IMG/VR virus record: IMGVR_UViG_3300021420_000016
Span: 90,049 to 154,048 of that record
Direction: 5' to 3' (one strand)
From: a virus
DNA length: 64,000 bases
Of this stretch, positions 41,172 to 62,513 are shown in pieces (positions within the stretch are counted from its first letter, which is position 1; each line of letters opens with the position of its first letter). A model generated the notes under the pieces. That model did no database searches. It was not told the DNA's origin and was given only the letters and a program-made list of their open reading frames with translations. The position numbers and the translations under genes are program-made.

Positions 41172-44100
41172 CACCGGCCCGTTTCGCTGCGGATGAACCG
41201 GACGGCGCGTTCGAGGTGGTCGCGTTCCGGCCCGTAGCGGGTGCCCGCTTGCGCCGCGAGAGCACCGGCGATCTGCTCCCGTTCCCCGGCGGCGATGGCC
41301 GGCGCGGCGGCCTGCGTGATCGCGGTCAGGTCTGCGCGGCTGAGGTTGAGTCCTCGCGCAACCGCAACGCGCCACGCCGCATCCACGGCTTCGGGTGGCA
41401 CGGGGTCATGATCGGCCCTCATCGCCTGACTCCCCTCGCCGTCCGCCGGGCCTGTCGCAGGTGGTACCGAAGGTCTGACCGAGCGTGGCGCTGCTTCGTC
41501 CACATGCCGACCTGGTGGCCGTCAACGTAGACCCGGAAGACGGCCTTGTACTCGTCTCCGAACCAGCGGTAGCCGGGCTCGATCCCGGTACGGCTGCTGG
41601 GATCTTCCTCGGTCACCAGCAAGTCCGCAAGAGGGTTGCCTGTGAGGGGCGCTTCGCGGGCGATGATGAGCCCTTCGTGTTCGGTGAGCATCTGCCGCAC
41701 CATGTCCACGCTGCTGGGTGCGGGTGCCCGCACTTCGTAGGTGCCGTCCGCTCCGGGGACGGGCTCACCGTGGGGTGCAATGAAGAAGGCGCTCATCGCG
41801 TGGACCGTTTCGTCGGCGTGGCGGATCCGCCATGCTGGGTTGGCTGCATCGGCGGGGCCGGGGAGCACGTAGAACGCCATGCCTGCCATTTCGCTCATTG
41901 CTCAGCCTTCCTGCTCCGCGTCCGCTTGCATCTGGGCGAGCCGGGCTATCGCCCACGGTGCGCCTAGCTGGGCCCACTGCTCAAGGGTCAGGGGCTTGAT
42001 GGGATAGCGGGCGACGCTTGCACGTACCTTCATCGCTCAACCACCGTCCCGCTCGCAGTTACGGAACCCGGCTCGCCACTCGCTCTCCGCGACCCGGTGC
42101 CCGCACTTGCCCACGACGTACCCGGCCATGCCGCCGTTGAGTTCCAGCGGGATGGGGGCACCCGGCTGCGGGTACACGGGTCCGGGGTCGTCGGTGTCTT
42201 CGGCGACGGCTTGCAAGGCGAGCTTGATCAGGTCATCGGCAGTGGGCATCAACTGCGGGCTGCGGACGGTGGCGAGGCACATCTCCTCGATGCCGAACTC
42301 GGTCACCTGTAGCCCGTCGTGGAAGACGGCGAACTCGCCCCACTGGTCGGGGTAGTTGATGCCCAGGTGGTCTATTTCATACTTCTTCCCTGCCACGGTG
42401 TAGGTGGCGATGGTCTCGCTGGTGTCGGCGCTGGTCATTAGAACGCGCCCGCTCTGGCTGCGGCGGCTTCTGCCGCTTCGTCTCGTTCGCGGATACGCTC
42501 GTCGGCGAGCGCTGCGACCTGGCCGGCGCGGTGGAGTACCTCTATGAGTATGGGGATGTTCTCTTTGCGCACCTCCATGCCCCCGGGGCATTCGATGATG
42601 GCGTAGGTTTCGCCGCGGTCGTCATCCTCGCGGACCTTGATCTGCGCCTGTGGCGGGGGAGTGGTCCACGGGTCTCCGGGCACGGGGTCGAACTCGGCGC
42701 GCACGGTCACGGCCCGGCCGGCGTCGAGTTCCCAGGCGATGAGTTCGTCGGTGAGTGGCCGCAGCCCGTCGGTGATGGTGATCTCGTAGTCGCCCGTTGC
42801 GTTTCGTTCCATCGGTCAGCCGCCTTCCTGGTTGCGCCCCGTGCCGCGCACGACGGCGTCGATTTCCATGAGCATGTCGGCGCCGTCCCATTCGGGCCGG
42901 GCCAGCAGTTCCGCGATGTGGTCGAGGGCGTGCCGGTCGCTGACGGCGCCCTCGGTTCGGTGCACGCCCATGTGGTCAGCCAGTACCTCGTGACTGTGCG
43001 GCTCGTAGCCGTCGTGGGCGTGCATGGTTTCAGCATCCCCTGAGCCGGGAGTCGTACCAGGACTGCATCTCAGCCCACACGCCACCTTCCCGGCCTGCGG
43101 CGTATTGCTCGTACGCGTCGCCACCTGCCCGCCACGCCTGGTCGGCCCGGCAGTGCCCGCCCGGCACGAACTCGCAATTATTCGGCGAGACGGCGCCCGG
43201 TTGGCAGATGTGCTCGCTGGCAGGGCTGACCGGGTAGTGGATCTCGACCGGGCCGCCCATGGGGTGGGCGCCGCCGTAGATGTCGAACGTGACAGCACCT
43301 TCCGGGCCGGACAGAATGAACCGCTTGACCACGGAACTGCCCGGCTGGTGCACGTCCACGATGCGGCGGGTCAGGGTGTCAGTCATCGCTCGGTCCTCCG
43401 TTTGCGGTCAGGGCCGCGATCAGCAACGGGGAGACCGGCCGCGGTTGCGGCCACCCGGATTCGTTGCGCGGCTTCGGCGGCGTCGTTTCCACGGGGCGGC
43501 TCGCGTGCCGACCAGTGGGGTGCCCTCGCCATGCCCGGCGCTGCCCTCTGCGAATGGGCTTGCCGTTGGGGGGCATCATTGGCCGTCTGCCTCGTCTGAG
43601 AGCATCCGCTGGGCGAGCGCCCGGTGATGACCCATGGTGACCCAGCGGCCGGCCTCGTCCGAGTAGCTGAACACGGTGCCGAGCGCGACGAAGCGCGTGT
43701 AGTCGCCGCCGCGGGCCGCTTCAGTGGTATCGGCCTCGTACTCGGGGAGGCGGACGATCAGGTCGTCCCAGATGTTGTAGGCCGCTTCGCCTGCGGGGGT
43801 CATGTGTGCGGCTTCGTAGTCGTTGAGGTCGGCGAGGATCCCGGCGATGCGGAGGGTGCATCCGGTGCATTGCGCCGGGTTGTGGGGTGGGGTGGCGAAG
43901 GGGTGCGCGCCGGGTTCATCGAGGTGCCCGTTGGTGAACCGCTGCGCGACCATTTCTGCGACCTCAGCGAAGTCTGCTGCGGTCGGGTCGCCGTCAAAGG
44001 TGAGGTTCCATCCTGTGGCCATCGGCTTTGTCCCTTCGCCTAAGGTCTTACCATATCACGATGATATCAGATCATCGTGCGGGAATGAAGCACTTCACAT

Positions 44101-47100
44101 CGCAATGGCGGCCGACCTCGTACGGCGGGCCGTAGTCGGTGTCCGTGCTCATAGCGGCCTCCCGTCCTTGGCCGGGTCGTAGCGGTCCATGCCGGCGAAG
44201 GTCAAGCCGCCATTCTCGGGCTGCATGGCGTAGCCGATCCCGTACCACTCCTCGTAAGTCGCCCATTCTTCGTCGGTCGAGCCGGGCCGTTCGGCGACGC
44301 GGTACGCCGCAGCGCAGGCGTTCTCGACCTCGGCGAGCGTCAGCCCGGTCGCTTCGGCCCGGATGCGCTTGTGCAGTTCCACGATCTCGGTCTCAGTCAT
44401 GGCTAACCTGCTCTCCGGATTGCTTCGTCGGTGCGGTAGGGAATCACCAGATACCAGCCGCCCACCCGGGCGAGGGTGCGGTGATCCACACTCGTGCCGT
44501 GCACGTCGACCGGGATGGTCACCGGCTCGTGGCCGCGGTCCAGGCCATCCGCTATGGCCTTCGCCCCGGCCGGGCTGAAACTCCACTCGGCCGACAGGAA
44601 CTCTGCCAGAGCTTCCGGCGTGGGGAACGCGCGCACCCGTGCCCTGCACTCACAGGTCCCATCGGGGCCTATAGCGGGTGTGTCGTGGTTGCACCACTGG
44701 CCGGCGGTTCCCATGGCTAGTGGGCCTCGTAGACGGCGTGGCCCTGCACGGTGATCTGCATGGGTACCCGGCGCTCACCGTCCGGGTCCACCATGGGCGT
44801 GTCGCCGTTCACGTCGTCCAGGTCCACCGAGACGCGCATGACACCGTCCTCGCGGTACAGCCACACCGTCACGCCGGCCACCTGAATGCAGGGCAGCGCA
44901 CTGTCGCGGTCATCCACGGCTGCTGAGTCGCAGCCCCAGGAGATCGCGTCCGAATTGACTTCCCTGTCGGTCCTCATTGCGGTGTCCCTTCGCCTTTGCG
45001 TGTTGGCTTCGCCTGGTCGTTAACGAGTCGTAGTTGGCACGCGGGGGTCTTCATGGCAATCGGCGCAGACGCGCTGGTCGGTGTCTGCGGTCAGTACGGC
45101 TACTAGCCGCACATTGCGCGCTTGGCAAAACTCACACTGTCCCACCGGAATCTCGTCGCGACCCTGCCCGGCAAGGGCTTCGGCGATGGCCTCGCGGATG
45201 CTCTCATCGAGAGCCATTACGTCCACATGGCCAGTGGCCCGGTACTTAAGCGCTGCCGCGTCGCTGAGTGGCAGTACCGCCGCGAGGGCAGCGGCGGCGC
45301 GTGCGGCACCACAGGGCCACTGGGGAACCGAGTCGGCGCAGCGGGAAACGCATATGCCAGGCTCGGGAAAGTTCGCGCTTACGTGTTGGCGGTGGGCCTG
45401 CTGGATCTTGCCCAGGATCACGCCCAGTTCGAGCATGTGTAGTACGGTCACGGCTCAAGTCCTTCCGTCGTTGCCGGTGGTGGTGGCGGGTGCCCGGTGC
45501 TCAATCGCGGCCCGGACGTGAGCGCCAACGTTGTAGTGGTTCGCCCAGTCGATCAGGGTTGCCCATTCGCCCTCGCTGAGCGGGCGCGGGTTCGGGCTGC
45601 CGCAGTAGATGCAGACCGGGGCGCGTATCCCAATGGTTCTCGGGACGATCCGCCAGTGCCGCATACGGCCAGGGCAGCGATCTTGGCCGCTCATCTCGCT
45701 CGCCGCCCCGTCGTTGCCGACCACCCTGGCTCTGTGCGCCTGAACATTTCACGGGTCAGGGCGTCGGCCATGGCTTGCAGGTCCGCGAGCACGTCCTCGT
45801 TGTGCAGTTCGTAGGCCAGGGCGGTCTGCTGCCGGCATAGATCCTGACGGCGGCGGATCTCGGCCGTGTTGAGCGTGGGGAACAGTTCGTCGGCCTCACG
45901 GTCGGTTTCTGCCGTCCAGCGCCTCATCTCAGTCCCCGTTCGCCAGCAGTTCGCTGGCATGCCCGTAGCTCATCGCTCAGCCGCCCATCCGTGCGCACAT
46001 CAGATTCCAGATGCGCTCGGCGAGCTGCTTCTGCCTGTGCGACAGGTTGTCCGTGGTATCCGCAGAGGCCCACAAGTCGCCTGCGGTGATGAGCAGGGCC
46101 TCGATCTCGTCGGCGGTGAACTGGCTCGCCAGTGGGCCGAGAACGGCCGGCAGGGGGTCGTAGTCCCCGTGAATCCGCACCCCAGGCGCGGGCAGGGTGT
46201 CCGGCTTGGTGCCGTCTTCGGCCACGAAGGCACTCGCGTAGGCGACCGGGCCGACGCCGGGCTCGGTGATGGTGTCGAACCCGTGGTCGATCAGTGAGCC
46301 CGACAGCGTACCGATGGCTGCCTCCTCGTCTGCCGCTTCCAGGCAGGCCACGACCATGACCGCCGTGTTGTAGACGTCCATTACCTCCGCGCCCCTCTCA
46401 TGTGCTTGTCGTAGTGGTCAAACCACGGGCCGCCCAGCTCCCGGTCGGCGTCGGCCGCCGGGGTACCTTTCCGCGCCCATTCCTTGACGTCGCTGCGGGT
46501 AACGACGGGGTCGCCACTGCTATCACACTCGCCGGTGTACTCGCCCAGTGCCGGGGTGAAGGCGATCAGTTCCCCCAGGCCTTCACTGTCGGGGTCGGAC
46601 CAGGCCATGAACGACACGCCGGGTGCGGCCTCGCGCAACTCCGCAACCACGTCCTCAAGGGCCCGGTATGGCGCTTCGCTGAGCGTGTACGGCTCGTCCA
46701 TCTCCAGCTCGGGCCCCGGCTCGGCCACGTTCGACCAGTTGATTCCGAAGCCCCTGCCGGATTCGGCGAAGTACGCCCCCGCGGCATCGCACTGGTCCTC
46801 GGGGCAGTCGTACACGTACACCCGCAGGTCTGATCTCAGATCGCTCATGACTTGACCGTCTCTTTGACCTTGAGTTGCTTCAAGTTCCAGCGCATGCCGT
46901 CTTGGCCGCGCAACTCTGCCAGCGCACCCCTCAGCCGGGCTTCGGCGCTTGCGACCCGGATCATCGCGACGTCTAGGTGCTCGTTGCGTGCCGGGGCATC
47001 GTTCAGGGCGGAGCCGAGGGCGGTAAGGGCGCTCGTCAGCATCGCGCTGGCCTCGTCGGCGAGATGCTGCGCGCGGGTCATTGCGTTCTCGATTTCCGCT

Positions 47101-47130
47101 GGCCGTACGGTCATTGTCGTTCCCTTCGCC

Positions 47131-48354
47131 TTAGATAAGTCCCATGCGTTCCATGTCGTGCTGCATGGCTACCATCGGGTCCTCCCCGCCCGCGGCGGGT
47201 GCGTCGACCCAGGTTGCCTGCATGGCGGCGAGGGCGTCCCGGCCGCGCTTGGACCATTCCGGCCCGGCGGCGTCCGCCATGGTGGCCAGGGGCCAGCAGA
47301 TCTGCCGGTAGCGGCGGTGCGTCCCCTCGACGGCCGGGGGGATGTACTTGCGGAGCCATTCCCGGTTCCGGTCGCACCAGCCTGCGCCGGCGATCCTGAT
47401 GGCGGTCACCACCGTCGCTGCGTAGTCCGCCTCAGCGTCCAGGCTGGCCGGTTCGGCGTCGTCGGGGGCGGGGACCATGCGGATGCGGAACCCACGAGAG
47501 AGGATCGCAAGGATGTTCTCGCTGGCGGTCTTCTCCACCACGTCCAGGCCGGCGAGCGCGATCGGGGCGAACAGCGGCACCCGCTCGGTTTTCTTGTTCC
47601 GCTCCCGCAGCTTCGTCCCCGGCACCCCGATCCGCGGGTCCGGGTTCGTGTAGCCGTTCAGCAGGATCTGCTGTACCCCCTGCGAGCGTTTGTCGGTGGA
47701 CAGCAGAATGCCCAGCTCGTCAATCAGCAGCGTGGGGATCTCGGTCTGGAGCGACAGCAGCAGCCCGTACTCGGTCGGCTGCGTTTCCAGGCCGGCGACC
47801 CGCGGGCAGGTGCAGGACAGCAGCCGCATCAGCGTCGACTTGCCCGAGTTGCGCTTGCTGGACAGGGCGAACAGCCGCGGGGACATGGGGAAGATCACCC
47901 CGGCGCCATCTTCGGGTGCCTCCCGGGCGTAGGTGTGCGCCGTCCACAGCACTGCGGTGATCAGTGCCGACTGCGACGGCCACCACAGGTACCGGGAGTA
48001 GAACGCGGCGAGGTAATCCAGCCAGTATTTCGCGGTGACCTCGATGACCTGGCCGCCTTCGCTGCGGTACAGGAACGGCACCGGGGGCGGCAGCTCCACC
48101 CGGCCGTACGACGGGGGCGGGGGCAGCACGGGCAGGGGGGCGAATTTCGCGGCCTCCACCTGGGCCGGCTCGACGGTGGCGACCGTCCCCGCCGCACCCG
48201 GCCGGACTGGGCCAGCAAGAGCAGGCGGCACGGCAGGCGTGGGCGCTAGCCCGTCCCTGACCGCTGCGGCTTCCGCGTCTGCCCTAAGGGCCGCGTTCTG
48301 CTCCCGCAGGCTCCCAGGCACCTCCTGGGGCGGCGTGAGGGTGGTTCCGGTCAT
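47131..48354 (-). CDS. P-loop ATPase resembling DUF3631-associated AICE/plasmid Rep proteins
   Basis: LWTAHT..SPRL..S..RNSGKSTL, PTLLIDE, LLNGY, FAPIALAGL, SR...IRM, W.PL...AD.AG..W. Confidence 0.7.
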   Translation of the reverse strand: MTGTTLTPPQEVPGSLREQNAALRADAEAAAVRDGLAPTPAVPPALAGPVRPGAAGTVATVEPAQVEAAKFAPLPVLPPPPSYGRVELPPPVPFLYRSEGGQVIEVTAKYWLDYLAAFYSRYLWWPSQSALITAVLWTAHTYAREAPEDGAGVIFPMSPRLFALSSKRNSGKSTLMRLLSCTCPRVAGLETQPTEYGLLLSLQTEIPTLLIDELGILLSTDKRSQGVQQILLNGYTNPDPRIGVPGTKLRERNKKTERVPLFAPIALAGLDVVEKTASENILAILSRGFRIRMVPAPDDAEPASLDAEADYAATVVTAIRIAGAGWCDRNREWLRKYIPPAVEGTHRRYRQICWPLATMADAAGPEWSKRGRDALAAMQATWVDAPAAGGEDPMVAMQHDMERMGLI

Positions 48355-51300
48355 GACCGCTCACCTGCCCCCAGCGGGCCGCACGGAGGCGGCGTAGGCG
48401 TCCAGGTTGCCGAGCACCTCATTGGCGGTCTCTACCGCTTCCCGCAGGACTGCGAGCGCGCCAGCGGCGCCTTTGCTGCCGTCCCCCAGGTACCGGGTCT
48501 CGCTGAACCCGCCCGAGAGCTGGAGCCGCCACGGCCCGTCCAGGGTGACCATCCAGGCGTAGCCGGGGTCCTCGGTGCGGTAGTAGTCGAAGTCGATGAC
48601 TCCCGGCCCGGTGAGCAGCCCGGCTTCCCAGGCGCAGGTTACGACGCTGGACGTGTCGTAGCCTTCGTCGTTGTAGTCGCGCGGGTCGTATTCGCTGCCG
48701 ATCTCAAGCTCCGCCGGCTTGCTGCCGCGGTTCGCTTCCCAGCGCTCAAACTGCGCGACCTGCGCGGCCAGGTACCCGGCCGCTTTGGCTTCGTCCAGTT
48801 GAAATCTCGCGTTCATGCCCTCGCGTCCCTTCGCCTGGTCATATCACGATGATATCATGGATAGGGTCAGGATGGCGAGTCCTTTGCCACGGGCTGCCAG
48901 ACCGGCTCGCCGCACTGGCAGTCATGCGCCGGATCGCGCGGCCCTCCCGATGGCCAGATGATGTCTTCGTCGGGGATGCCGGCGCGCCACGCATCCCAGC
49001 TCGGCCCGTCGTGCACGTGATGCTGCCCGGTCATGCCCATGAGGATGTTGGTGACGTGGATGAGCCCGTCTGAGTTGTAGGCGGCGCAGAACTTCATGCG
49101 CGCCATGCCGCCCATCGGGTCGTAGCGCGGTTCGATGTCGCGCGGGCGCCAGGCGAGCATGACCTTCCGCGCGTCCGCCCAGTGCGGGTCTTGGTGCAGG
49201 TGGCCGTCTTCGCCGGTGTCCCGGCCGCTGGGCCGGGTGAAGTCACATCCGGTGGCCAGCAGTTCTGCGCGGAACTCGCGGGCCTCGGCCTTGAGGCGCA
49301 AGGTGACGGCGCAGTGAAGCCCGCTGCGCTCGTGCATGACACGCCAGCCGGCGCCGGGGGAGCGTTCCACGCTCAGCCCGCGGTCGACGTCGGTGCCGGT
49401 CATGACTCGCTCCCGGGGTATGTGATGGGCGGGAATCCCCAGAACGCGCGGTGTTCGGTCATGGCCTCAAAGGGCACATTCCGGGTCCACCGGACGCGGC
49501 GGTTGTCACCTTGACCGGCGGGGAACTTGTGCAGCTCGTACCGCGTCGGCCCGTTGAAGTCACCCGGCGCGTACCCGTCGCCGCCCTGGCCGATGGCCTC
49601 AAAGTCGAGCACGGGCCAGGCCACCTCATTGCCCACGCGGCTGACGACTAGCCCGGTGTCCTGGTCGACGCCGTAGCGGATGCTCCGGTTCCGGCTCATC
49701 GCGCGCCCGCTTCGCGGATCTCAGCGGCAACGGGGAAGACGTTGCCCTCAAGCGGGGCACGGTCACCCCCGCCGGCCGGATTGATCACGTACCGGACGAA
49801 GTGATCGGTGAAGACCGCGGAGCCAAGCCCGTTGTCGGTGACGATCCGGTACAGCCATTCCGTTGTGGTCATGTGCCGGTCGCCATGCTTGGTGAACTCG
49901 ACCCGGTCGAGGTAGATCACCGCGAGCGGCGTGTCGTACAACTCCAGCACGGCGGAGCCGGGGAAGTGGTGAATGGTGACGGTGGTGCCGATCCGCCTGC
50001 GGCTTTTCAGCCCGTCGTAGGTGAGCGGCGGGGTGTCCGCTGGAAAGCGGAAGATGTAGTCAGGCATGGTCGTGCCCCCCAGCCGGCGCTTCCTGCGCGC
50101 TCTCTGTCACGGCGTCCGCGATCCGCTGCCCGACCATCGCCATGTCGTCCTCGATGTCGCCGGTCGCTTCCCAGTTCTGCGCCGCCTCGGCCGCGTCGTA
50201 GGCGGCTGACAGCCGCCGGTACTCGTCCAGGTCGGCCCCGTCGACGGTGACGGTGAGGGTTACCGGCCTCGCATGTGGTGCGTTCATGGTCGCGATCCCT
50301 TCGCCTTATATCGTGATGATATCATGGATCGGGCGAGCCGTCTACAGTGGCCGTTCCGCGAGAGCCGCCCGGGACACGTCACTCAGGGACGCCGAGACGA
50401 CTAGATACGACTCGATGTCCCGCCGCGCCGCCCACACCTGATTTTGCGTCTCCACCAGCCCCCGGAACGTCACGGCGGCCTCGTCGTCGCCACGGCCCGT
50501 GTTCCCCATGGCTTCCCCGAGCCGCACCAGCTCGGCGCCGAGAGCATGACGGGCGGCGTTGATCTCGGCCGCGGACCATTCGAGCTTGAGCGTCGCGTCC
50601 TCGCCCGGCTCCCCGTCCTCACCCAGCCACGCGAAGTCGTCGGCCAGTTCGTCTAGATCAGCGCGCCGTAGCGCGGCACCCGCGGCCTTGGCGCGCTCGT
50701 GCGTCCAGTCGAGCTTGAGCGTGTACGGCATGACTCAGCCCTGCCCGGTCGGTACGTCAAGGCTCGTGAGGACCACCACGTATTCGTCGCCGTCGTCCAG
50801 TACGGCCCGGTCCTCTTTCCAGGGGAGATCACCGAACGGGGCGCACGCTTCGTCATACCGGCGCGATACGGCGTTGTCTTCGTCGTAGTGGTCCTGACAG
50901 GCTGCCCGCGCCTTGCCTTCGGTGCTGAATGCGCCGATGAAGTCGGACGCATGGCCGACCCTGTCGAGTAGTGCAGTGTAGATGTCCATGTCGCACTTGT
51001 GCCCTCTCGTCTTTAGTCCCGGTTCCCGGCCGCTGGCTGCCTCAGCGCGCGGGCAAGCCGGTCCTCAATGCCTGCCGTCAGTTCTCCCGGTGTGATGCCG
51101 AGCACGTCACGGATGCGGTCGGCGGCCACGTCCGGGCTGTAACCGAACAGGACGCGGTTTAGCATGATGGCCAGGTCGTGAATCAGTGCCCCGGTGGGGA
51201 TCTCGCCGCTAATCACGGGCCCCCCGCTCACATACACCGTGCAGCGGCACAGGTCCGGCCGCACCCGGCCACCCGGCCCGATGTGATCGCCCGGCCCGTG

Positions 51301-52129
51301 GTGCTGCTCGTAGGTGTGATCTCCGGAGTCGTGCAAAGGGTGCTCCGGGCATCCCTGCTCCCGGCACGCCCGATCCGGGCACCGCGTGCGAGGGTCCAGG
51401 TCGATGCACGTCTCGCGCCCCGCCTCGTCGCGCACCACCAGGACGGGCGGGGAGATGGCAGGGTCGCGCATGATTCCGTAGCCCGCGCGGGCTGCCTCGT
51501 CGGGCGTGTCGACGTCGTCTAGTTCGACCGCCAGTGTCACCATGTAATGCATCGCTTACCTCTAGTTAGTACCGTGGCGGGTTCGTCACTTGGTACCAGT
51601 TCCCGCAGTCGTCTTCGGTGTAAGTGCCGTCACCGCCGAGGGGCAGCCGGTCATGACTCCCGGCGCCCGGGAGGCGAAGCGGCTCGCCCGTGAGTGCGGC
51701 AAGTTCGCGCGCCTCGGCGGGGCCGTAGTCGTTGCCTTCGTCGCGCTGGGTGCACAGATCCTCAATGCGCGCCTCATCGCGCCAGCGTGCCCACTGCCGG
51801 GCCTCTCCGGGCGACACAACCGCGCCGGGGTCACCTGCGGCCCACTTCGCCGCGCGGTCGTACGCCTCGTGGTAGGCGCTCAGCCAGCGCCACCGATGCG
51901 GCGCGTTCTGCATCGTGGCCGGCCCGGGATGACCGAGCGCGGACGCTAGCGCCGCTTCGCCGGCCGCGTCCCGCGTGAACGCCGGAACGCCGGTCACGGC
52001 ATGCCGGCGCGCGAGGATGCGCGCCTGGCCCTCTGTCGTCGTCGCCATTTGCCTTGTCCCTTCGCCCTTGGTCTGATCGTTCGCTCATCCCGCCCCGGTC
52101 CCGAGTGGTACCGGGGCGGTAGCCAGCGG

Positions 52130-52507
52130 TCAGGCGCGCACCCAGTAGGCCACGCCATCGAACGTGACTTCGGTGTAATCCATCTTGAGATCGTCAGCGG
52201 CGGCGGCCCAGTCGATGCGGTTGGCTGGCCAGTCGGCGTCTCTCTGGATTGCGCCGATGTCCTCAGCGAACTCGCGGGCGTAGTCCTCGAAATATGAATC
52301 GCGGATCAGCCCGGCGCCGCCCCGCCAGTCGCCGGCGTGCATCTCACCTTCGGCGGCCAGGGCTCGGAGCGCGGCCAGTTCGGCGGTCTCGTCCTCGTCC
52401 AGCACGTACACGCCGTCACTGTCCGCGAGGTTTTCCAGTTCGGTGATCCGTTCGATAACCTCGCGGCTGTCGATAACGTCGCGGTCGCTGGTGATCGCGT
52501 CAGGCAT
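52130..52507 (-). CDS. ArdA-like antirestriction / DNA mimic protein
   Basis: Highly acidic; FEDYAREFAEDIG..WPANRIDWAAAADDLKMDY resembles the ArdA C-terminal domain. Confidence 0.6.
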   Translation of the reverse strand: MPDAITSDRDVIDSREVIERITELENLADSDGVYVLDEDETAELAALRALAAEGEMHAGDWRGGAGLIRDSYFEDYAREFAEDIGAIQRDADWPANRIDWAAAADDLKMDYTEVTFDGVAYWVRA

Positions 52508-52511
52508 TGAC

Positions 52512-53522
52512 TTACGCCTCCCCGCGCAGGTAGGCGCCGTAACGGTCCCCGAGGAACGCGCGAAGCTCGGCGGTCTGGCCCCCGGTCAGGTCATACATGC
52601 GACGCGCCTCGCGGGTGGTCTCCAGCCCGTATTCGCCGGCCCAGTCGGCAAAGTCGCGGGCGTTGTCGTAGCCGGCGGCGTCGTCGGCCAGGCAGCGGAG
52701 CACGTCACGCGCCGTGGGCGGGGTAGGCAACCGCGCCCCGCGGATGATCTCGGTATGCCCGGAGCCCATGAAAAACGGCACGGTCATCGACGCGCCGGCC
52801 GCGTTCGTCAGCGTGACATCCCACCATTGGCCGTGGCTTCCGCGGTCGCCAGTGGCCCACGCGGGCGGGGACTCGCGCGTCGTGGCTACCGCGGTGATCC
52901 CATCGCCGCTGATCGTCGCGCCCGGATCGAACGCCCGTGCACCGCGGAACAGGTCACGGACCCGCTTGAGCGTCCCGGCCGGCAGGTCCCGCAGCAGCCA
53001 CGCCGACCCGTACCGGTAGCCACCCGGCCGGGCCGGGCTCTCGTCCGTCTCGGGCTCGCCCGGATGCAGGCGCATAGCGGCAGGGGTCCGGCACGGCGGG
53101 GTCAGGTCGAGGCTCACCCGCTGGCCGCCGTACCCGTCATCTTCCATGACCGGCGCTTGGTGGTCGCATCCGGCGTTCATGTCATTGAGGTGCAGCGGCG
53201 CCAGACCGGCCAGCGCGGCCACCTTGGCCGCATCCCAGCCCGGCGCGAACTCGGTAAGCGCGGCGAGGATCTCCGCAGCGTCACCTGATGCGATCATGTC
53301 GGCGCCGTTCGGCTGCCACACCGCGGCAGTCATGGCGAAGTCGACCGGCTTGCTCACCTGCCGGTGGTCGGTCGTCTCGTAGGTGCGCCTGTCGAGGCGT
53401 TCCATGCGGACATCGACGGTCACCGGGCACCGTCCGCGGTAGCCGTAGCCCTCGCCGTCGACGTAGCCGACGTGCACGTTTTCGGCATCGAACACTGTTT
53501 CGCCGTTCAGTCCTCGCGCCAT
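52512..53522 (-). CDS. Two-domain hypothetical phage protein
   Basis: LHLNDMNAGC.HQ and GYRYGSAWL domain, then FFMGSG..PTARDVL.CL..DA..F.DW..EYG domain. Confidence 0.65.
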   Translation of the reverse strand: MARGLNGETVFDAENVHVGYVDGEGYGYRGRCPVTVDVRMERLDRRTYETTDHRQVSKPVDFAMTAAVWQPNGADMIASGDAAEILAALTEFAPGWDAAKVAALAGLAPLHLNDMNAGCDHQAPVMEDDGYGGQRVSLDLTPPCRTPAAMRLHPGEPETDESPARPGGYRYGSAWLLRDLPAGTLKRVRDLFRGARAFDPGATISGDGITAVATTRESPPAWATGDRGSHGQWWDVTLTNAAGASMTVPFFMGSGHTEIIRGARLPTPPTARDVLRCLADDAAGYDNARDFADWAGEYGLETTREARRMYDLTGGQTAELRAFLGDRYGAYLRGEA

Positions 53523-53831
53523 GTCCGGCGCTCCCTTCGCCTCGGTCCTGCTATATCGTGATGATATCATGCCCATGCGTGGCACGCTACCGGCTAGGCC
53601 AGTTCCGGCCGTCCCCTCTGAATAATCGTTCCGTCATCGCTGGTCCAGATGGGATTGACGCTGATCTCACGCCCAGCCGCATCCCTGAAAATCGCGGCAG
53701 CCATCGGGTCACCCCCGCCGCTCTCCACCGTGCACGTGTAGCGGGCCATGTCCAGTCCATACGCGGCCAAGTCGGCGCGTAGCTGTTTCTCGATCATGCG
53801 ATGCAGCGCAGCACCAGAGACCGCGCGCCGG

Positions 53832-54104
53832 TTACCGGCCGTCACGGCGACTACCGTCTTCCCAGTAACGATGTTTGGACGTCTCAGCCCGCGAAGGATG
53901 CCTAGCGGCGGCGAACGCTTCCCATTCGGGGCGCCGCTCAGCGGTCCATCCCCAGTCTTCCCCGCCTGACCTAGAAAAAAGCACGACATCCGGAATCGGG
54001 AAGTCATCGCGGCGGGCAAGCCAGTTAGACACAGCCGCACCTGTTACCCCGGTCCACTCGGCAACCACGCTTTGCCCGTAGGCAACCATAGGTCGATCTG
54101 TCAT
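53832..54104 (-). CDS. HTH DNA-binding protein (candidate array regulator)
   Basis: YGQSVVAEWTGVTGAAVSNWLARRDDFP.P..W. Confidence 0.7.
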   Translation of the reverse strand: MTDRPMVAYGQSVVAEWTGVTGAAVSNWLARRDDFPIPDVVLFSRSGGEDWGWTAERRPEWEAFAAARHPSRAETSKHRYWEDGSRRDGR

Positions 54105-55094
54105 CGCCTTTACCTGCCCTCCCGCGCTAGCCGCGCGTCTCGCTGCTGGTCGTTCTCCACCTGGAGGACGTAACCGCTCCCGTCGTTCATAGGCGCGCGG
54201 TAAACCCTCTTGCCCACGTCCCCCGGCAAGATCCGCCCCATGAAGTCGCCCACGGACCAGGCGCGGCCGAACGCATACAGAGGCGCCCGCCCCACGTCGC
54301 CCTCCATGAGGGTGTAAAATGCCGTGGCGCCTTCGCGGTAGGCAACCTCGCGCACGTTGACACCCCCGTCCGCTTGGTATATGTCGATAGCCAAATGGCC
54401 ATCCTCGGTGGTCCTGAACGCCACTAGGCAGCCGCCTGCGGCTGATGACACTTCCACGATGCGCTCATTTGGCCCGGCGTAGTTATTCGCCACGCACCGC
54501 GTTTCCACACTTGGCTTACGTCCTCTTGCCATTGCTCCAAGCCCCTTCGCCCTTATCTGATTTAGCCCGCCCCTCCCGGGCTAGTGCCGTACCGCGTCCC
54601 GGCCAGCGTGCACGGGAAGCCGGCGGCCCCCGTCGTAACGCTGGATCACTTCAACACAGTTATCGCCCCACGCCCGAATGCCACCCTCTCGCACCAGCTC
54701 GATGATCTCGGCCGCCTTGGAGTCGTAGCAGGGCCGGCACATGTTCGTAACGTGGCGGCGCTGCTCACCCCCCGGGGCGGTAACCCATTTGATCAGGAAC
54801 CGGCCGACCGCGGCCGGCGGGCTGGCGTCGTGCCCTTTGCCGGCGTAAAGCTCGCATACTGGCGTGCTCATCGTGCCCCGCCTCCTGTCTCGCCGGCTTG
54901 GCGCCGGTCTAGTTGCGCGTTGAGTACGTGCTGAATCCCGCGAGAGTAGGCGGCCAGGAAGTCATAGCGGTCAGACCAGGCCGGTTCCTCCGCGGGTGTC
55001 TCATGGGACGCCACGACGGCCGGTTTACCGGCTAGGACGTCGCGGGCATCCTGGCATCCGGCCGCGAATCCGCGCGGGAAAATATCGGTCATGG

Positions 55095-55769
55095 CTAGGC
55101 ACTCTCGCCCGCGGTGGCCGGGTGCAGCGGGCAGGCGCCGGCGTGCTCGACCTGGCCGCTACGGTGGTTGAGGGTGCCGGTGCACTTCGGTTCATGGGTA
55201 AGAGACTCGGCTACCTGCTTAGCCTCGTCTTCGGCTTCGCTGTAGCCGTAGATCCCCCAGCACGCCTCAACCTCTTCCCCGTCGATGGGGTCGGTGATCG
55301 TGTAGCCGTAAACCTCCCCGTTCACGTACTGCCCGTACGTCTCGACATCGCCGGTAATCAGCCGGTATGCCTGCTCCCGGTCTGCCTCGCTCCCCGTCCA
55401 GGGCTGGCCTTGCGTGTCCGCCCAAATCTGCGGGGTCACATACGCTAGCCCGGCCTGGCCCGAATCCCAGTCCCCCGGATCGCAGTCTGAGAAGTCCCGG
55501 CCGGCGCGCAGTGCAATGCCGGAATGGTCGATCATGTAAACCGGCGCGACGACTAGCGCACCCTCAGCGGTCGTCAGGTGCTCTGCGATCTCGGCCCACC
55601 CGCCGAAGTCGTCAAAGTTGACCCCGGCATCGTTGGGGAAGTCCCAGCTCCGGGCGGCCATGACCAGCCCGCAACCGGGCGAGTCGTCGTCGCGGGGGGA
55701 TGAGGCGTCCTCATCCGGGAAGATCTCGACGGTAAAGCCGTTAACCTCGCTTGTGCTGATCGGTTGCAT
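55095..55769 (-). CDS. Acidic conserved phage protein
   Basis: D.DA.SPRD, PVYMIDHSG, WDSGQ.G, ETY.QY..GEVYGY, CWG.YG. Confidence 0.7.
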   Translation of the reverse strand: MQPISTSEVNGFTVEIFPDEDASSPRDDDSPGCGLVMAARSWDFPNDAGVNFDDFGGWAEIAEHLTTAEGALVVAPVYMIDHSGIALRAGRDFSDCDPGDWDSGQAGLAYVTPQIWADTQGQPWTGSEADREQAYRLITGDVETYGQYVNGEVYGYTITDPIDGEEVEACWGIYGYSEAEDEAKQVAESLTHEPKCTGTLNHRSGQVEHAGACPLHPATAGESA

Positions 55770-56077
55770 GTGCCCGTGTCCCTTCGCCTTAGTCGCCTTA
55801 GCGGACGCTGCACCGCGCGGATAGCGGGGGATACCCGCGCGGTCCCGTGCTCGCTAGGGCTCGATCCGCTCGGCGTGAATGTCGGTGTTCAGCACGCCGA
55901 GCGGATCTATGATCTGCCGCGCAAGGCGCACCGCGTGACCCTCATCGGTGATGCCTTGCACGTCGGCGTCAAGGTAGAAGACTGGCACCTGAACCGAGCC
56001 GCGCCAGTGAACGTCGTGCCCATGTTCGTAGGTGCGCACCTGCGCGGTAATCGCGTACATCATGATTGCTCCCGCTC

Positions 56078-56707
56078 CTAGGAGTGCCGGCCGTCCGCCT
56101 CGCAGCCGATTTGACCGCACCCGCCGCAAAAGTCGCCATCACTGATCGGGGTGAGGTCGGACACGTCGACGTCTTCGGGCCGGTCGTCACCGATCATGAC
56201 CGCGGTGACCATCCCGTCGACCGCATCGGTGCTCACGATCCGCCACGCCACGCCGGGGGAGTCGGCCACGGCATAGGCGGAATCCATGTCCAGCCCGTGA
56301 GGCTGCACGTGCGAGCGCGCTTCACGCTCCACCTCGGCCCAGAATGCGCCCGATGCCGCATCCATGTAGGCCAGCTCCGCATCGTTCAGCCCGGACTCAT
56401 CCGGGTCGGCGTCCTCATCGATGTCAAGATCTGCGGCCAGGTCACGCGACGTGTAATCGCCGCTGTACTCGCCCGACAGGTCGGGAGTCCGGTAGGCGTC
56501 CATGATTTCCGGGTCACCCGCCTCGATGCCGCGGAGGACTCGCCGGTATGTCTCGCCGGCCGTGTTCCCGTCGAACACCCACCCGGCCGCGCTCTTGCCC
56601 GCTTCCGCGCCGAGTTGCCGCGCGTGCTCTAGCGTGCCCTCGGTGTAGTCCGGCTCCCGCGAGATATCGACGTCATAGCTTGCCGGCATCCGTGGCGTGT
56701 CACTCAT
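56078..56707 (-). CDS. Very acidic protein (DNA mimic candidate)
   Basis: D/E-rich; C-terminal FCGGCGQIGC. Confidence 0.6.
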   Translation of the reverse strand: MSDTPRMPASYDVDISREPDYTEGTLEHARQLGAEAGKSAAGWVFDGNTAGETYRRVLRGIEAGDPEIMDAYRTPDLSGEYSGDYTSRDLAADLDIDEDADPDESGLNDAELAYMDAASGAFWAEVEREARSHVQPHGLDMDSAYAVADSPGVAWRIVSTDAVDGMVTAVMIGDDRPEDVDVSDLTPISDGDFCGGCGQIGCEADGRHS

Positions 56708-56784
56708 GTCCGTTAGTCCCTTCGCCTTTAGGTTCTAGCTGGTATCGGAACGTACGGGCGGGCCGGCCGCACGCTCCGGGCCGG

Positions 56785-56940
56785 CTAGTAGGTGAGGCTG
56801 CCGTTGCCGACGCCGGCGCGGAGTTGCGCCTTGTCAGTCTCGGTCAGGCCGGCCCACTCGCGCTTGAAATCGGCCAGCCGGTACCCGTCGACCTTGATCG
56901 CGCTGTAAACCTCGCCCATGGTGGCCGCGTCGTTCGCCAT
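56785..56940 (-). CDS. 51-aa protein (not in ORF track)
   Basis: MANDAATMGEVYSAIKVDGYRLADFKREWAGLTETDKAQLRAGVGNGSLTY, preceded by the 10-mer and a promoter. Confidence 0.8.
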   Translation of the reverse strand: MANDAATMGEVYSAIKVDGYRLADFKREWAGLTETDKAQLRAGVGNGSLTY

Positions 56941-58800
56941 TGCCCTGCTGTCCCTTCGCCTAGGTTGAACTATGCTGCCATGATATCACGCCGATATGAC
57001 AGAACGCGAGGGTTCGCGCCGGTCAGTCTGCCGTGCCCGTCTCGGCCGGCATCCTGGCAAAACTCAGATACATGGTGGAGTAAATGACCTCGCTTCCGGT
57101 GTAGTCATTCCATCCCTCGCGGTTATCAACCGAGATAGCCGCAAGATGCCCGTACTCAGTGATGGCACCCATAGCCGGCTCATACTCGGCGGGCAGGTCC
57201 GTACTGTCGTCAAGGTCAATGCAGTACGCATCAGCGAAGACGCGCCACTGCTCACGGGTGAGGATGCCGGCCCACTTGCGATGCATGCCCGCGTTCGGGC
57301 AGGTGCATTCATCCTCACATTGACAGTCCCGGTCCGCATACGGCAGATAGCGCGGGCTACTGCCCTCTTTCACCAAATACCCGAAGTCGTATTGTTCGTC
57401 CCCTTCGGTTTGAGTGAATGCCTCAGTTATTGCCGTGATCGTTTCGTCAGGCCGGCGGCCCGCGGGCACGTGACGCGCCGGCGACATGCTCTCGATAAAC
57501 CCCGGGTAGTCGGTCACCACGTCAGCGTCATAGATCACGTAAACGTGAGTCCAGCCGGGAAACTCCGCGTCACCCATTACCATCAAGTCCCTTCACCTTG
57601 CCCTAGCTAGTCCTAGGGACTAGCGGCCCGCCACACTCGGCGCATGGTTGGCCGCTGGCCCATAGGCCGGTTAGCTCTTGTCGTCCTCAACCCAGAACGT
57701 CACCGCATCACGGTTCCCGCCTAGGGTGCTGCCACACGTAGCGCATGCGGACCAGGAAAACCCCAGGTCTTCACATTCGCAATCGTCCGCGATTTGCAGC
57801 TCATGAAACGTCACGGATGCTACCTCGGTAGCCGGCCCGCATCCGTGCTGCCACCGCGCGTCGTCCGCGTCGTCCGCGTCGTATTCGTACTCTGCGCCGG
57901 CCACGTCGGTAACAGTGCAGTTGGCAGCGCACCCGTGGTACTGCGCCAGCATGCCTAGAGTGACCTCGCACCCTTCGGTGATGCGGTTAAACCGCGCTAT
58001 GAAGTCCCGCCGCTGTTCACCGGTCCATTCCGGGTCCGTCTCACCGTTAGCCAGCCACATAAGGCAATCGGTACAGCACCCGTCCGGCGCGTTCCCTGTC
58101 AGTGTGCGTCCCATGATCGTTACCCCTTCGCCTAAGATGCTCCTATGATATCACGCCGATATGGTGCTAGGGAGTGTTTTCCCCGGTAGCCTCACGGCAT
58201 GCGGTCACGCGCGATTGATCCGGTAACGGAACGCCGAACGTGCCAGAAACCCCGGAGTTTCACTGTAGGACTGAGCTATAAGCGTGAGAGTCACGCCGTG
58301 TTCCGCCTGGTATGCTTTGCGCGCCGCGTTGATCTGCGCCGCGCGTGAACGCCGGCCGGCCGTGTCGTCCGCGTTGATCCACACATAGTCGCCTATGGCC
58401 TGCGGATTGTCGTTGTATGCGGTCACGTCTCTGCCCCTTCGCTTAGCAGTAGGACGTTGCCAGGGTGACCTGCTCACCGTCATCAGACATGCGTATCAGG
58501 ACACCGGAAAAGAAACTGTCATTGTGTATGCCGTGCCAGCCTGCCCGCGCAAAATCGCCGCCGGGCTCGACACGCCTAAACTGATCTAGGGAGTACAGCT
58601 CACCGCGGAAACGCACGAACGTAGCGGAATCCGCGCCGGCGTCGATCTTCGCCCAGTCCAGGTAGTCAAAATCGTCGCGTTCCGCCGGCGTTAGCTCACT
58701 GGGGTCGACAGTGAACCGTGGCACGTTGTTAGTCCGTATCGTGACCCTGCCGTCACTCATGGCCTGGTATCCCTTCGCCTAGTGGATGATCTGTCCTAGT

Positions 58801-58849
58801 GCCTGCCGTGACTCCGAGGTCACGCCGTGCCGGTCCCTACCGGGCAGGC
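58801..58849 (-). ncRNA. Structured leader, three-way junction, copy 1
   Basis: P1 gcctgc/gcaggc, P2 cgtgac/gtcacg, P3 ccggt/accgg. Confidence 0.55.
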
Positions 58850-59271
58850 TTGTTGACTCAGCTAGAACACCGGCCGGCGGGGTCACATCCAACATAGATA
58901 GTCGGGTGTGTGGCCTGGGCATCGTAGCCACCGATCCAGCCGGCGAACCATCCCGCGGGCAGATCGAACGCCGGCGCATAGTGCGCGGGATTGTAGGCCA
59001 CGTGGAAACGCTCGCACAGTGCCGACAGTGCCGAAGTCTGCGCCGGCGTCATAGCCGGCGAGAGTGTCACCGTGCCGACATCCCAAGCGCCGGAATGCCC
59101 GCGCCGGCTACCGGCGCCGGGGATGACGCGCGCAATGCTGCCATCGGCGAACAGTTCCGTAACCGTGCCGAACCATTCCCCGATTTCTGAATTGTCCACC
59201 CTAACGTACTGCCCTACCTGAAACCCTCGCATGACTGCCGCCCCTTCGCCTAGTGCGTGATCTTGCGTAGT

Positions 59272-59318: not shown

Positions 59319-60595
59319 TGGCCTAGCTACGCCGGTTCGGTATCCAGCCAAACCCCGTCACGGTGCAGGTACAGCGGAGTGACCTTAAAGTGATACGCGC
59401 GCCGTGGTCCGAGCATCCAGCTTGACATGTCGACCGGCCGGCCGTTATCCGGCCGCGCGCCACGGGACAACGGGAAGGCATGCCAGAGCACATACGGGCC
59501 TGTAGCGCCAAAGCGAAACTCACCGTCGCGCCGCTGGTCCGTGTCGTAAGGATTCCAGCCTGCACAGTAGTGCGGCACTACAGCCTGCCCGTCGTCAAAC
59601 AAAGCTATGGCCTTGACCGCGTTGCCCAGTGGCAGAGCTGATGCGTCATCGCACGGCATGTAGATGCCGGCCGTAGGGTACTCGGCGCGGGAACCGTCCC
59701 CCCGGACCAGGGTGCCGCTGTACATCACAGCATGACCGCCGGCGTACTCGCGGGTCGGCTCGTGATTGTCCAGAGCCGTGCGCCAGTGGATCACTTGCAC
59801 GTCGTAATTGTGCAGGCTGGCCTGCTCCGCGTACTGTGCACAGTCTGCCCGCATGTCTTCGTAGGAGCGGAATTCTTGCCTTGCCATCGCCGATCGTTTC
59901 CCTTCGCCTAGTTCGGTTCGGTTCGTATGTCTCCCGGCAATGCCAGCGTGATCGGTCCGGCTGGCACTCCCGGGAGTCATGCGGCCTACAGCCGGACTGC
60001 GCTGATATGGATAACCGGCGCCGGCCGGAGCGTTCGCACGTATCGTCATGGGTGGTCCCTTCGCCTGCTGACCTGCTAGAATGTGTTGTGTCGCTAGGGT
60101 TTGCCGTTAAGCAGCCAGCCGTGCCGGCCACCGTCCCATGTGAACGTGATGCCGTCACGCTTGATAACCGGCGCATGGCCGTAGCGGCTCGCGTGAAACA
60201 CGGGGTCGACGGTGGCCAGCATGCCGCAGGTCACGCACCGTTGCGCGAACCTGCGGAGGTCGGCCAGCTCCGCGTGAGTGATCTCACCGTAAGTGTCGTT
60301 CTGCGGCATTGCCGGCTACCTCGCCGGCCGGCACTTGGGCATGTGCGGGCAGGTAGTGACCCGGGAGCAGTCATCCCGTGGGGGAAGGCTGCCCGCCGTC
60401 CACTGATCGAACGTGGCAGGGTAGGCCTGCCCGTTGTGCTGGCCGACGTACACACACTCGGCGTAACCGGCAGTGCAGTGGCAACGCGACTCGCACGCGG
60501 CACAGTCGTAGAGCCTGCCGGGCTCATGCGGATAGTCCGCGTGCGCCGGCTCGCTGGTCTTGGTCATGCCCGCTACCTCCCTGGTAGTGATTCAA

Positions 60596-60932: not shown

Positions 60933-61003
60933 CGGAGTGCCCGCACCCCAAAGCAAGAGTCATCCGCGGATACTGCGGAGCATGCGGACAGCCAGCCAGC
61001 TAG
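60650..61003 (+). CDS. Ribbon-helix-helix type DNA-binding protein
   Basis: RRNNVSAKLSDSELASVNSARGNMPAGQWVRGVILAAL; C-terminal CPH..YCGACG. Confidence 0.7.
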   Translation: MGRTRSEDGRRNNVSAKLSDSELASVNSARGNMPAGQWVRGVILAALPGDAAERAPATPRARRTRPAKRDTGILDTATDKDSGIPHTPNRDTGIPECPHPKARVIRGYCGACGQPAS

Positions 61004-61014
61004 GGTCACCCGGC

Positions 61015-61115
61015 TAGTCACACCGTGACTACTCGCCACGGTGACCGGCCTCAGCCGATCACCCACTCGGCTAGTCACACTGAAACTAGCCCGGCCACTA
61101 GTCACACTGTGACTA
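61015..61115. repeat. Three 17-bp palindromes TAGTCAC-N3-GTGACTA
   Basis: 61015, 61072 (right arm degenerate), 61099. Confidence 0.85.
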
Positions 61116-61141
61116 CTCACAGACCTCCGACCGGCGGACCC

Positions 61142-61276
61142 TTACTCACGCTGGCCTAGGCGGTCGGCTAGGCAGATCTCGACATGGCCGAAGCCTTCAC
61201 AGCGCGGGCATGGCTTGCCGGTCGGCGTTTCTGCTTTGCCGTGACAGGCAGGACATAGGGCTACGTCGTAAAGCAT
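61142..61276 (-). CDS. 44-aa DnaJ-type zinc-finger peptide (not in ORF track)
   Basis: MLYDVALCPACHGKAETPTGKPCPRCEGFGHVEICLADRLGQRE. Confidence 0.7.
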   Translation of the reverse strand: MLYDVALCPACHGKAETPTGKPCPRCEGFGHVEICLADRLGQRE

Positions 61277-62513
61277 TGGCTAGACCAGCTTTACCAAGAG
61301 GTCACCGCGGGAACCTTTGGCCTTCAATGTGGTGATGTAGGAACGCCTAAGCCAGTCGGTACTCACGCCGAACAGATCAAGGTCACCACCGGCCATAGTC
61401 TCAAGATGCGCCATGAAAGCATCCATGCCATGATCGGCAATGTACAACATCGCATCCGTGCGGCCGATGATCAGGTCATAGCGGAGTTGTTGGGTAAGCA
61501 TTGCGTGTCCCTTCGCCTGTGCGCGCGTCTCGCGCGTCTATCCCTATCCAGTCGCATGCGTAGCCTTCGCTGGCATCGTTGCCCGTGCACGCTACGGTGC
61601 GCTGCCCGTGCCCGTTCCGGCCGGCCTTACGGATGCGCCGGCCGCAGTCTGGGCATGACTGCCCGGCCATGCCCACGGGTATGGCCGGGCAGTGAACGGG
61701 TGACCTAGGCACGCGCGTCCGTGCCAACGTCGGCTATGTAGCCTGCCAGCGTGGATGTCAGACGGTCCGGTCCCCAGAGACGTTCCGCGAGAGTCCAGCA
61801 CCCGTCACAGATCAGGCCATGTTCGCCGGTCTGCGCATGGCCGACACAATCGCGGTGCAGTTGGCTCTTGTCCGCCCCCGATTTGGGCGCGAACGCATGC
61901 CCGTGCCGACCGATAGGGTCACCCGGGTGATGTGCGGCACGGTTACACGTGGCGCACCGGTCGGCCGGTAGCAAAGTACTGAACGCCGGGCCGCGCGTGT
62001 CGTCACCGTTGGCGTAGTCGGCCATGATGCTGGCCACGGTGCGCTCCAGTCGGCCGGCCACGGTGCGAGCCGTAGGCATGGCGTGGACGTCCGCCTTCGT
62101 GCGGAGGTCGGCGATAGCGTCGCTCAGTTCATCCACGGTGCGCTCCAGTGCAGCGCGCAAGTTGTCGGTATAGGCACGGCGGTACATAGGTGATCCCTTC
62201 GCCTAGGTTGCGTCCGTATGGACTAGGGGTGCCCCGTCCCGTGCTGGCACGGTTCACCCGTGGCCCATACGGGCTAGTCGGACGATTCGGAGTGGTCGTA
62301 AAACACGATGGGGCGGACGGGGTGACCGTTGCTGTAGAACCGCCCGGTCTCGGTCAGGCGGTAGCGGTACCCGCCGCAGTCCGGTATGGCAATGGGTCCG
62401 ATGACCTCGGTCACGATGCCGCGGTAGGCGGTACCCATGGTGACGCACTGACCGACGATCACGTCACCGATCTTGGCGTCCGGCGTCCTGGTGGTGCTCC
62501 GCAGAGTGCTCAT

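Follow-up and report, generated by a model that had tools for sequence, protein, structure and literature searches.

A start-associated sequence as probable translation-initiation tag and cassette junction in a large uncultured soil phage

The window analyzed here is the final 64 kb (positions 90,049 to 154,048) of the virus record IMGVR_UViG_3300021420_000016, a single 154,048-bp record from a soil metagenome with a CheckV completeness of 98%. On its minus strand it carries a leftward array (44032..62204) of about 40 small open reading frames (ORFs), and ahead of many of them stands the short sequence AGGCGAAGGGA, hereafter the tag. We put a probability of roughly 70% on AGGCGAAGGGA being a start-associated sequence, namely a standardized translation-initiation tag for early-type gene cassettes that would also be the junction at which the cassettes are joined.

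Searching both strands of the window for the 10-mer AGGCGAAGGG with at most one mismatch gave 31 matches, compared with 6.6 ± 2.6 in 100 shuffles, none of which reached 31. On the minus strand there are 17 exact copies and five one-base variants, as an earlier note on this DNA had listed, and all 22 lie 7–12 nt (counted after the 10-mer) before a start codon, which is ATG in 21 cases and GTG in one. Twenty of them fall within 44,032–62,204, and the outliers are at 7825 and 34791. The same note placed every copy on the minus strand, which holds for the 22 start-associated copies but not for an exact plus-strand copy at 20555, antisense within the gene of an FtsK-like protein and not at a start. 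Together with eight more one-mismatch matches, none of them at starts, it makes nine non-start matches that fit the chance background. The copies are listed below with the start codon and protein length behind each and, where present, the palindromic element TGATATCAT and the edges of homology to relatives (L076, L077 and L082), which are metagenome contigs reached via homologues of two array proteins.

7825..7834, minus strand: outlier, exact copy inside the end of the upstream gene; ATG 7816
7553-7816, minus strand: 87-aa ORF, missed by the codon-bias caller; start and preceding stop overlap as ATGA; flanked by a 348-aa gene and an HD-domain gene
34791..34800, minus strand: outlier, variant GGGCGAAGGG; ATG 34780 of a 236-aa gene (34070-34780)
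upstream of the 34791 copy, minus strand: promoter-like TTGACA-17-TACGGT site in a divergent region
44032..44041, minus strand: exact; ATG 44022 (148 aa); TGATATCAT 19 nt upstream
44986..44995, minus strand: exact; ATG 44977 (86 aa)
47122..47131, minus strand: exact; ATG 47114 (89 aa); first A doubles as the final base of the preceding TAA stop, in a 16-nt gap
48827..48836, minus strand: exact; ATG 48816 (151 aa); TGATATCAT 12 nt upstream
50297..50306, minus strand: exact; ATG 50287 (75 aa); TGATATCAT 9 nt upstream
52058..52067, minus strand: variant GGGCGAAGGG; ATG 52048 (160 aa); hairpin spacer
53533..53542, minus strand: exact; ATG 53522 (336 aa); TGATATCAT 18 nt upstream
54543..54552, minus strand: variant GGGCGAAGGG; ATG 54532 (140 aa)
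55780..55789, minus strand: exact; ATG 55769 (224 aa); homology to L082 and L076 begins exactly at the motif
56718..56727, minus strand: exact; ATG 56707 (209 aa); L077 homology block ends on the last motif base
56952..56961, minus strand: exact; ATG 56940 (51 aa); TGATATCAT 18 nt upstream; L077 homology block begins at the motif
57589..57598, minus strand: variant AGGTGAAGGG; ATG 57577 (184 aa)
58124..58133, minus strand: exact; ATG 58114 (147 aa); TGATATCAT 11 nt upstream; L077 homology ends at the motif
58435..58444, minus strand: variant AAGCGAAGGG, overlapping the upstream TAA stop in a 16-nt gap; GTG 58426 (73 aa); L076 homology begins at the motif
58771..58780, minus strand: exact; ATG 58760 (105 aa); structured hairpin leader
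59242..59251, minus strand: exact; ATG 59232 (124 aa); leader paralogous to the 58771 leader
59900..59909, minus strand: exact; ATG 59887 (186 aa), the start matching the L076 homologue
60057..60066, minus strand: exact; ATG 60049, giving a 240-aa reading in frame with ATG 59887
61509..61518, minus strand: exact; ATG 61501 (73 aa)
62195..62204, minus strand: exact; ATG 62187 (160 aa); 84-nt leader 88% identical to L077, with identity stopping at the motif

The element is private to the 18-kb array and the two outliers, as the earlier note had claimed. A scan of the whole record found no exact 10-mer copy in the remaining 90 kb of the genome, outside the window, and genome positions 1–97,000 hold no tag copy; the tag is restricted to the non-structural part. 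Genes were called by codon bias, which gives rough calls, and 176 rough gene starts outside the array serve as the rest-of-genome comparison set. Among these called starts the motif occurs only at 34791 (the ORF behind 7825 had not been called), while GGAGG stands ahead of 25 and GAAAGG ahead of 11, which agrees with the report that other operons use AGGAGG or GAAAGG. The start behind the tag is ATG in 21/22 cases, compared with 52% (92/176) in the rest of the genome.

The previously proposed 10-mer is conserved, but it falls one base short of the conserved unit. Position +10, outside the search pattern, reads A in 18 copies and G in the other four, so that the unit is the 11-mer AGGCGAAGGGA. 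Positions directly flanking the 11-mer carry only 0.1–0.7 bit, and the AGGC prefix is conserved at 86–100% among the 22 copies. In approximately 12 of the 22, the first A of the tag is overlapped or directly preceded by a TAA or TAG stop; a TAG stop lies at the 5' edge in 7/22, against a background of 10.7% (T before AGG on the array strand).

Within the array, where every intergenic gap was read, the tag occupies one particular place. The stretch from 44 to 62.2 kb has 22 gaps of at least 40 nt, and 17 of them close with the tag, a 7–12-nt spacer and ATG. At 47122 and 58435, where the gaps measure 16 nt, the copy overlaps the stop of the gene before it, and copy 59900 lies inside an open frame, 157 nt downstream of copy 60057. 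Array genes 0–25 nt apart otherwise use GGAGG, GGGAG or GAAAGG-type sites, like genes elsewhere in the genome. The spacer ahead of the tag contains either the palindromic TGATATCAT element or a GC-rich hairpin without a T run, so the modular unit described earlier (promoter or hairpin, then motif, then small ORF) is borne out by the gap reading. The tag would thus sit where ribosomes must load afresh, after a promoter/operator or a hairpin spacer. A consensus scan found four terminator-like sites with a T run, none within the spacers.

TGATATCAT is a palindromic, TG-extended −10-like box with 10 matches, compared with 0.07 expected. Six of these elements precede tag copies:

44061..58153, minus strand: TGATATCAT elements at 44061, 48849, 50316, 53561, 56980 and 58145, each 9–19 nt upstream of a tag copy

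They are probable early promoters/operators and the counterpart of the elements called ESAS in cluster K mycobacteriophages. Their distance to the tag ranges over 9–19 nt, which argues against the tag belonging to the promoter. A consensus promoter scan of the array strand returned only two promoter-like sites.

The first array gene (62274-62513, minus strand) has no ribosome site, and a TATCAT box ends 6 nt ahead of its ATG; it is probably read as a leaderless mRNA from the outermost early promoter. The stretch 62505-62570 (minus strand) is 96% identical in L077. The interval 59327-60066 (minus strand) is one open frame with two in-frame ATGs (60049 and 59887), each with its own exact tag and with a strong hairpin between them; the L076 homologue aligns to the downstream start. 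This doubly tagged frame could encode two isoforms or could be the remnant of a lost cassette.

The phage host is probably an actinobacterium, because the array includes protein families typical of actinobacterial mobile elements (DUF3631 and a weak DUF3145 match; DUF3560 in relatives). Pairing was computed with RNAduplex against a general actinobacterial 16S rRNA tail, GAUCACCUCCUUUCU, which was taken in part from a figure legend (PMC3203893) and may not be that of the host. Against this tail the tag forms seven pairs, one of them G:U, at −9.2 kcal/mol and through GAAGGGA only, compared with −8.7 kcal/mol for GGAGG and −15 kcal/mol for the perfect GAAAGGAGG. The segment facing GAAGGGA, 3'-CUUUCCU-5', is the extreme 3' end of actinobacterial 16S rRNA; the AGGC prefix falls beyond it, stays unpaired and contributes nothing to the duplex. 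This agrees with the earlier statement that GAAGGGA pairs with the anti-Shine-Dalgarno sequence through one G:U and that this pairing does not explain AGGC.

With complementarity to the 16S tail at the distance from the start expected of such sites (5–12 nt), the tag would qualify as an ordinary Shine-Dalgarno site, which does not explain the invariance of the whole 11-mer. We propose that GAAGGGA acts as a moderate Shine-Dalgarno site for fresh loading of the 30S subunit. As AGGC is as invariant as the Shine-Dalgarno part and lies beyond the rRNA end, something else constrains it. Its reader would most likely be a protein or RNA specific to the phage lineage, turning all the cassettes on or off in concert; another possibility is that AGGC is kept since the tag is a shared adapter for recombining leaders and ORFs. 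In 20 folded leaders, GAAGGGA has a mean unpaired probability of 0.62, compared with 0.3–0.45 in the leaders, and no shared RNA structure involving AGGC was seen in them. A same-sense identity to 16S positions 724–731 was set aside, given that it spans 8 nt and has a chance expectation of roughly at least 0.07.

The relatives have arrays of similar architecture and carry tags of their own. In each, a purine-rich tag particular to the lineage precedes the first gene after a spacer and invariably lies on the coding strand; the forward and reverse counts are as follows:

This window: AGGCGAAGGG; 17 forward, 1 reverse
L077 (46.7 kb): AGGCGAAGGG, also with the TGATATCAT element; 9 forward, 0 reverse exact; 11 with variants, all ahead of starts
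L076 (172.8 kb): AGGCGAGAGG(AC); 8 forward, 0 reverse
L052 (7.4 kb): GGCGAGAGG, the AGGCGAGAGG version as in L076; 2 forward, 0 reverse
L078 (125 kb): ACGGAARGGAAAYGATC abutting ATG; 23 forward, 0 reverse (counted as ACGGAARGG)
L082: YGAAGGGA(A)AC, without the AGGC prefix; 8 forward, 0 reverse (counted as YGAAGGGA)
L079: GGAGAGGA(GC); 5 forward, 0 reverse
L053: CAACGAGAGGGAG; 2 forward, 0 reverse

Against the same 16S tail these variants pair at −9.0 to −10.3 kcal/mol. Their heptamers, GAAGGGA, GAGAGGA and GAAAGGA, differ only opposite the rRNA U run: positions facing an rRNA C are always G, and A/G exchange occurs only where the tag faces a U. Within the window genome the variable position +10 also faces an rRNA U. 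Reading of the core by the anti-Shine-Dalgarno tail would be expected to leave this pattern of variation. The flanks differ by lineage, with a 5' AGGC here, a 3' AAC in L082 and a whole fixed spacer in L078. We conclude from these sequence comparisons that the tag is one lineage's version of a trait common to a clade of uncultured soil phages. At 3800-11200 of L078 the 18-nt initiation region ACGGAARGGAAAYGATC is kept whole, abutting the ATG of more than 12 consecutive small genes, and this homogenization of the initiation region is far stricter than in the window.

Comparison with the relatives had been proposed earlier as a check on breakpoints, and homology blocks and indels do begin and end at motif edges. 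L077 is collinear with the array yet mosaic. The 84-nt leader 62277-62194 is 88% identical between the two, and the genes on either side of it cannot be aligned. In blastn comparisons of 310-nt segments centered on the tag against all relatives, 7–8 of approximately 33 internal alignment ends fall at tag position 0/−1 or +9/+10, and most other ends lie at −58 to −74, where the preceding gene stops. In L082 a 144-aa gene takes the place of the window's 73-nt hairpin leader before the 224-aa gene, with the upstream stop codon on one side of the replacement and the tag on the other, and the cassette order of L082 is permuted relative to the window genome. Contigs from one soil run lack the leader 61508-61707 or have something else in its place; the affected part begins at the stop codon of the preceding gene, runs to one base before the 3' edge of the tag and takes in the 10-mer at 61509. 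Leaders and genes therefore look like separate modules joined at the tag. As homology blocks of related soil phages start and stop there, new genes would drop into expression slots that already exist. These alignments support crossing-over within the tag but do not prove it, because any conserved island at a gene boundary would end them at the same place.

Several observations weigh against the tag being both initiation site and junction. That same tendency of conserved boundary islands partly predicts the alignment ends at the motif. A natural deletion in two soil runs, 58181-59042, has both ends away from the tag, and an exclusive role of the motif in recombination is not supported. L082, which has the most similar homologue of the 224-aa protein found (76%), lacks AGGC, and the prefix is therefore not needed for the architecture. 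The pairing energies were obtained with a general actinobacterial tail that may differ from the host's. Searches of the phage for S21, S1, CsrA, NusG and sigma-70 region 2 found none, and a single-subunit RNA polymerase was not found either, in a search that was positive in none of the control genomes. The deletion itself joins 58180 to 59043, with the loss of two small genes and part of a third and with 2 nt shared at the joint.

Among the alternatives, the one that survives best extends the preferred explanation and does not exclude it. The tag could be the address of a phage RNA-binding regulator or endoribonuclease with a role like that of T4 RegA/RegB, which would recognize AGGC plus the Shine-Dalgarno part on mRNA and switch translation of all cassette leaders together. 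We consider this less likely than not. It would account for an AGGC as invariant as the Shine-Dalgarno part without any gain in rRNA pairing, and lineage-differing flanks fit co-evolution with a phage factor better than with a fixed host factor. The outliers precede the 236-aa protein, next to a divergent control region, and the 87-aa ORF, either of which could be the autoregulated factor. However, no family of RNA-binding proteins or RNases could be recognized in the genome, and the motif is not displayed in any consistent RNA structure. No Pfam family is matched by the proteins encoded behind the two outliers or by those around the 34.8-kb switch, and as to an antisense partner, complements of the motif of at least 8 nt occur only as scattered chance copies. 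The earlier proposal of AGGC as a translational enhancer or protein site accordingly lacks support, no candidate reader having been found. It is possible, although on the doubtful side, that the 11-mer and its counterparts are the address of a phage-encoded translational switch that co-evolves with the tag. In that case a protein or small RNA of unrecognized type would read AGGC plus the Shine-Dalgarno part on about 20 early mRNAs, and a newly captured gene would fall under the switch at once, the tag being a recombination adapter too.

We consider it improbable that the tag is a DNA site for a repressor, whose binding would block transcription of the array in a lysogen. Like the stoperators of phage L5, the tag is asymmetric, of similar length (13 bp in L5), and present in many intergenic copies oriented with transcription. 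Its consensus varies between lineages, as the stoperator consensus does between cluster A subclusters, and there is a divergent control region at 34.8 kb. Stoperators, however, act on DNA via a repressor and are untied to start codons, whereas the tag is confined to one array plus outliers, is fixed at 7–12 nt from starts and varies between lineages by the pairing rules of the rRNA tail. The structural half has no copies, none stands away from starts, and the array already has a separate palindromic operator in TGATATCAT. Pope et al. named the L5/cluster A stoperators as a contrast to the start-associated sequences (SAS) of cluster K mycobacteriophages, which is the same contrast as drawn here (PMC3203893).

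Quite improbable, too, is an ordinary ribosome site whose copies are identical only through recent duplication or gene conversion of leaders. Some leaders are indeed paralogous (58771 with 59242, and the TGATATCAT units), but the 11-mer is near-invariant in 22 copies amid bases of so little information, and L077 keeps the same 11-mer where the flanking genes have diverged beyond alignment, which argues for selection on the 11 bases themselves. Least probable is a part of a phage-specific promoter or initial transcribed sequence, each copy marking a transcription start: in six units a transcript from the −10-like TATCAT box 9–19 nt upstream would begin near or just before the motif, but the distance to that box varies, fourteen copies follow hairpins without promoter-like sequence, three (47122, 58435 and 7825) lie in or over the end of the upstream ORF, and a phage sigma factor or RNA polymerase was not found (the polymerase search being positive in no control genome).

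The translation-initiation tag proposed here has its nearest parallel in the SAS of cluster K. SAS are short asymmetric repeats in one orientation, lie in the non-structural half of the genome just before starts with an ATG bias, and consist of a Shine-Dalgarno core plus equally conserved bases without 16S pairing (Pope et al. 2011, PMC3203893). They are 13 nt long, occur in 11–19 copies and stand 3–7 bp from the start (PMC3203893). ESAS have since been interpreted as SigA-like promoters carrying an inverted repeat (Adephagia 2024, PMC11373665), and papers of 2024 and 2025 still describe the role of SAS as unknown (PMC11373665; 188-genome survey, PMC12699233). The tag likewise is an asymmetric repeat in one orientation (22 copies), non-structural, just ahead of starts and biased to ATG, and it joins a Shine-Dalgarno core to conserved non-pairing bases, if the assumed host 16S tail is right. 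The inverted-repeat TGATATCAT, which lies 9–19 nt upstream of 6/20 array copies, resembles ESAS in arrangement and is unrelated to it in sequence. The TAG inside SAS recalls the TAG/TAA at the tag edge, which does not explain the following G-G-C.

The differences are equally clear. The cluster K consensus GGGATAGGAGCCC, allowing up to two mismatches, has two matches here compared with 2.6 expected, neither at a start; since it is absent, the tag is an analogue and not a homologue of SAS. The tag is 11 nt long instead of 13, its spacer is 7–12 nt instead of 3–7, and its pairing, through GAAGGGA, is with the extreme end of the rRNA tail instead of with the AGGAG core. Its carrier, an uncultured soil phage of 154 kb with 38 tRNAs, is unrelated to cluster K; the tag differs from one related lineage to another, and homology blocks end at it.

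A second parallel is found in the PeSL cassettes of T4-type phages, which consist of a stop codon, a promoter and/or stem-loop, a Shine-Dalgarno sequence and a start (Arbiol et al. 2010, PMC2839356). They precede ORFans in a hyperplastic early region, and indels or replacements between relatives are bounded by the cassettes (PMC2839356). The array shares with them compact regulatory spacers, a plastic early-type region and differences between relatives bounded at motif edges or upstream stops. PeSLs, in contrast, conserve a sigma-70 promoter plus stem-loop, whereas the invariant part here is the ribosome-site tag, and promoter and hairpin are mostly alternatives instead of being combined in one spacer. 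Both analogies, SAS/ESAS and PeSL, had been drawn in the earlier note and proved apt when set beside the published descriptions.

Since their description in 2011, SAS have in print been essentially limited to cluster K mycobacteriophages, and a clade of large soil phages that have not been cultured shows the same design, arrived at independently. Unlike in cluster K, several related lineages with different tags are at hand here, in which the pairing core changes only in pairing-compatible ways and the flank changes freely. Such a natural series separates the ribosome part of these tags from the private part. It also supports a view of standard phage expression slots, with a fixed ribosome-site adapter and exchangeable promoters, hairpins and accessory genes.

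The phage genome has a G+C content of 68% and 38 tRNA genes at 72.5–81 kb. It encodes an FtsK-like protein and a DnaB-like helicase, and for most of its large structural proteins neither Pfam nor PHROG has a matching family. The array ORFs are mostly without a Pfam family as well, apart from weak ArdA and DUF3145 matches. The earlier suggestion that they are anti-defense genes is left with only the ArdA match, below the Pfam cut-off, and is not supported. Cultured relatives were not found by megablast of the array against 50,697 phage records or by tblastn of a large structural protein against cultured phages, and tblastn of the 224-aa protein against cultured phages gave only distant matches (<46% identity) in unrelated large phages. 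A DnaB search of IMG/VR returned short fragments as the closest relatives, and relatives of 95 kb and 58 kb in IMG/VR (approximately 50% DnaB identity) had no clear motif array. Scans with the DUF3631 and 224-aa families of metagenome, viral and genome collections gave only distant or uninformative matches. Searching IMG/VR for TGATATCATCRYGATAT gave single chance matches only, a literature search for the 10-mer string found only unrelated primers, and the soil DNA runs yielded low-depth contig fragments only; no RNA run is listed as containing this DNA.

Outside the window, at genome positions 68,065–68,530, lies a CRISPR-like array of 29-nt repeats from which seven spacers were read. None of them has a self-target longer than 16 nt in the phage genome, and a link between the tag and the phage's CRISPR/TnpB locus was rejected, given that 0/7 spacers match the motif or the array. 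The 224-aa array protein (55095-55769, minus strand) belongs to no Pfam family and has more than 1,100 homologues, from metagenomes and from large phages whose hosts differ widely (Ruegeria, Mesorhizobium, Bacillus and Moorella), with conserved H, W-D-S-G and C-x-x...H-x-x-x-C positions.

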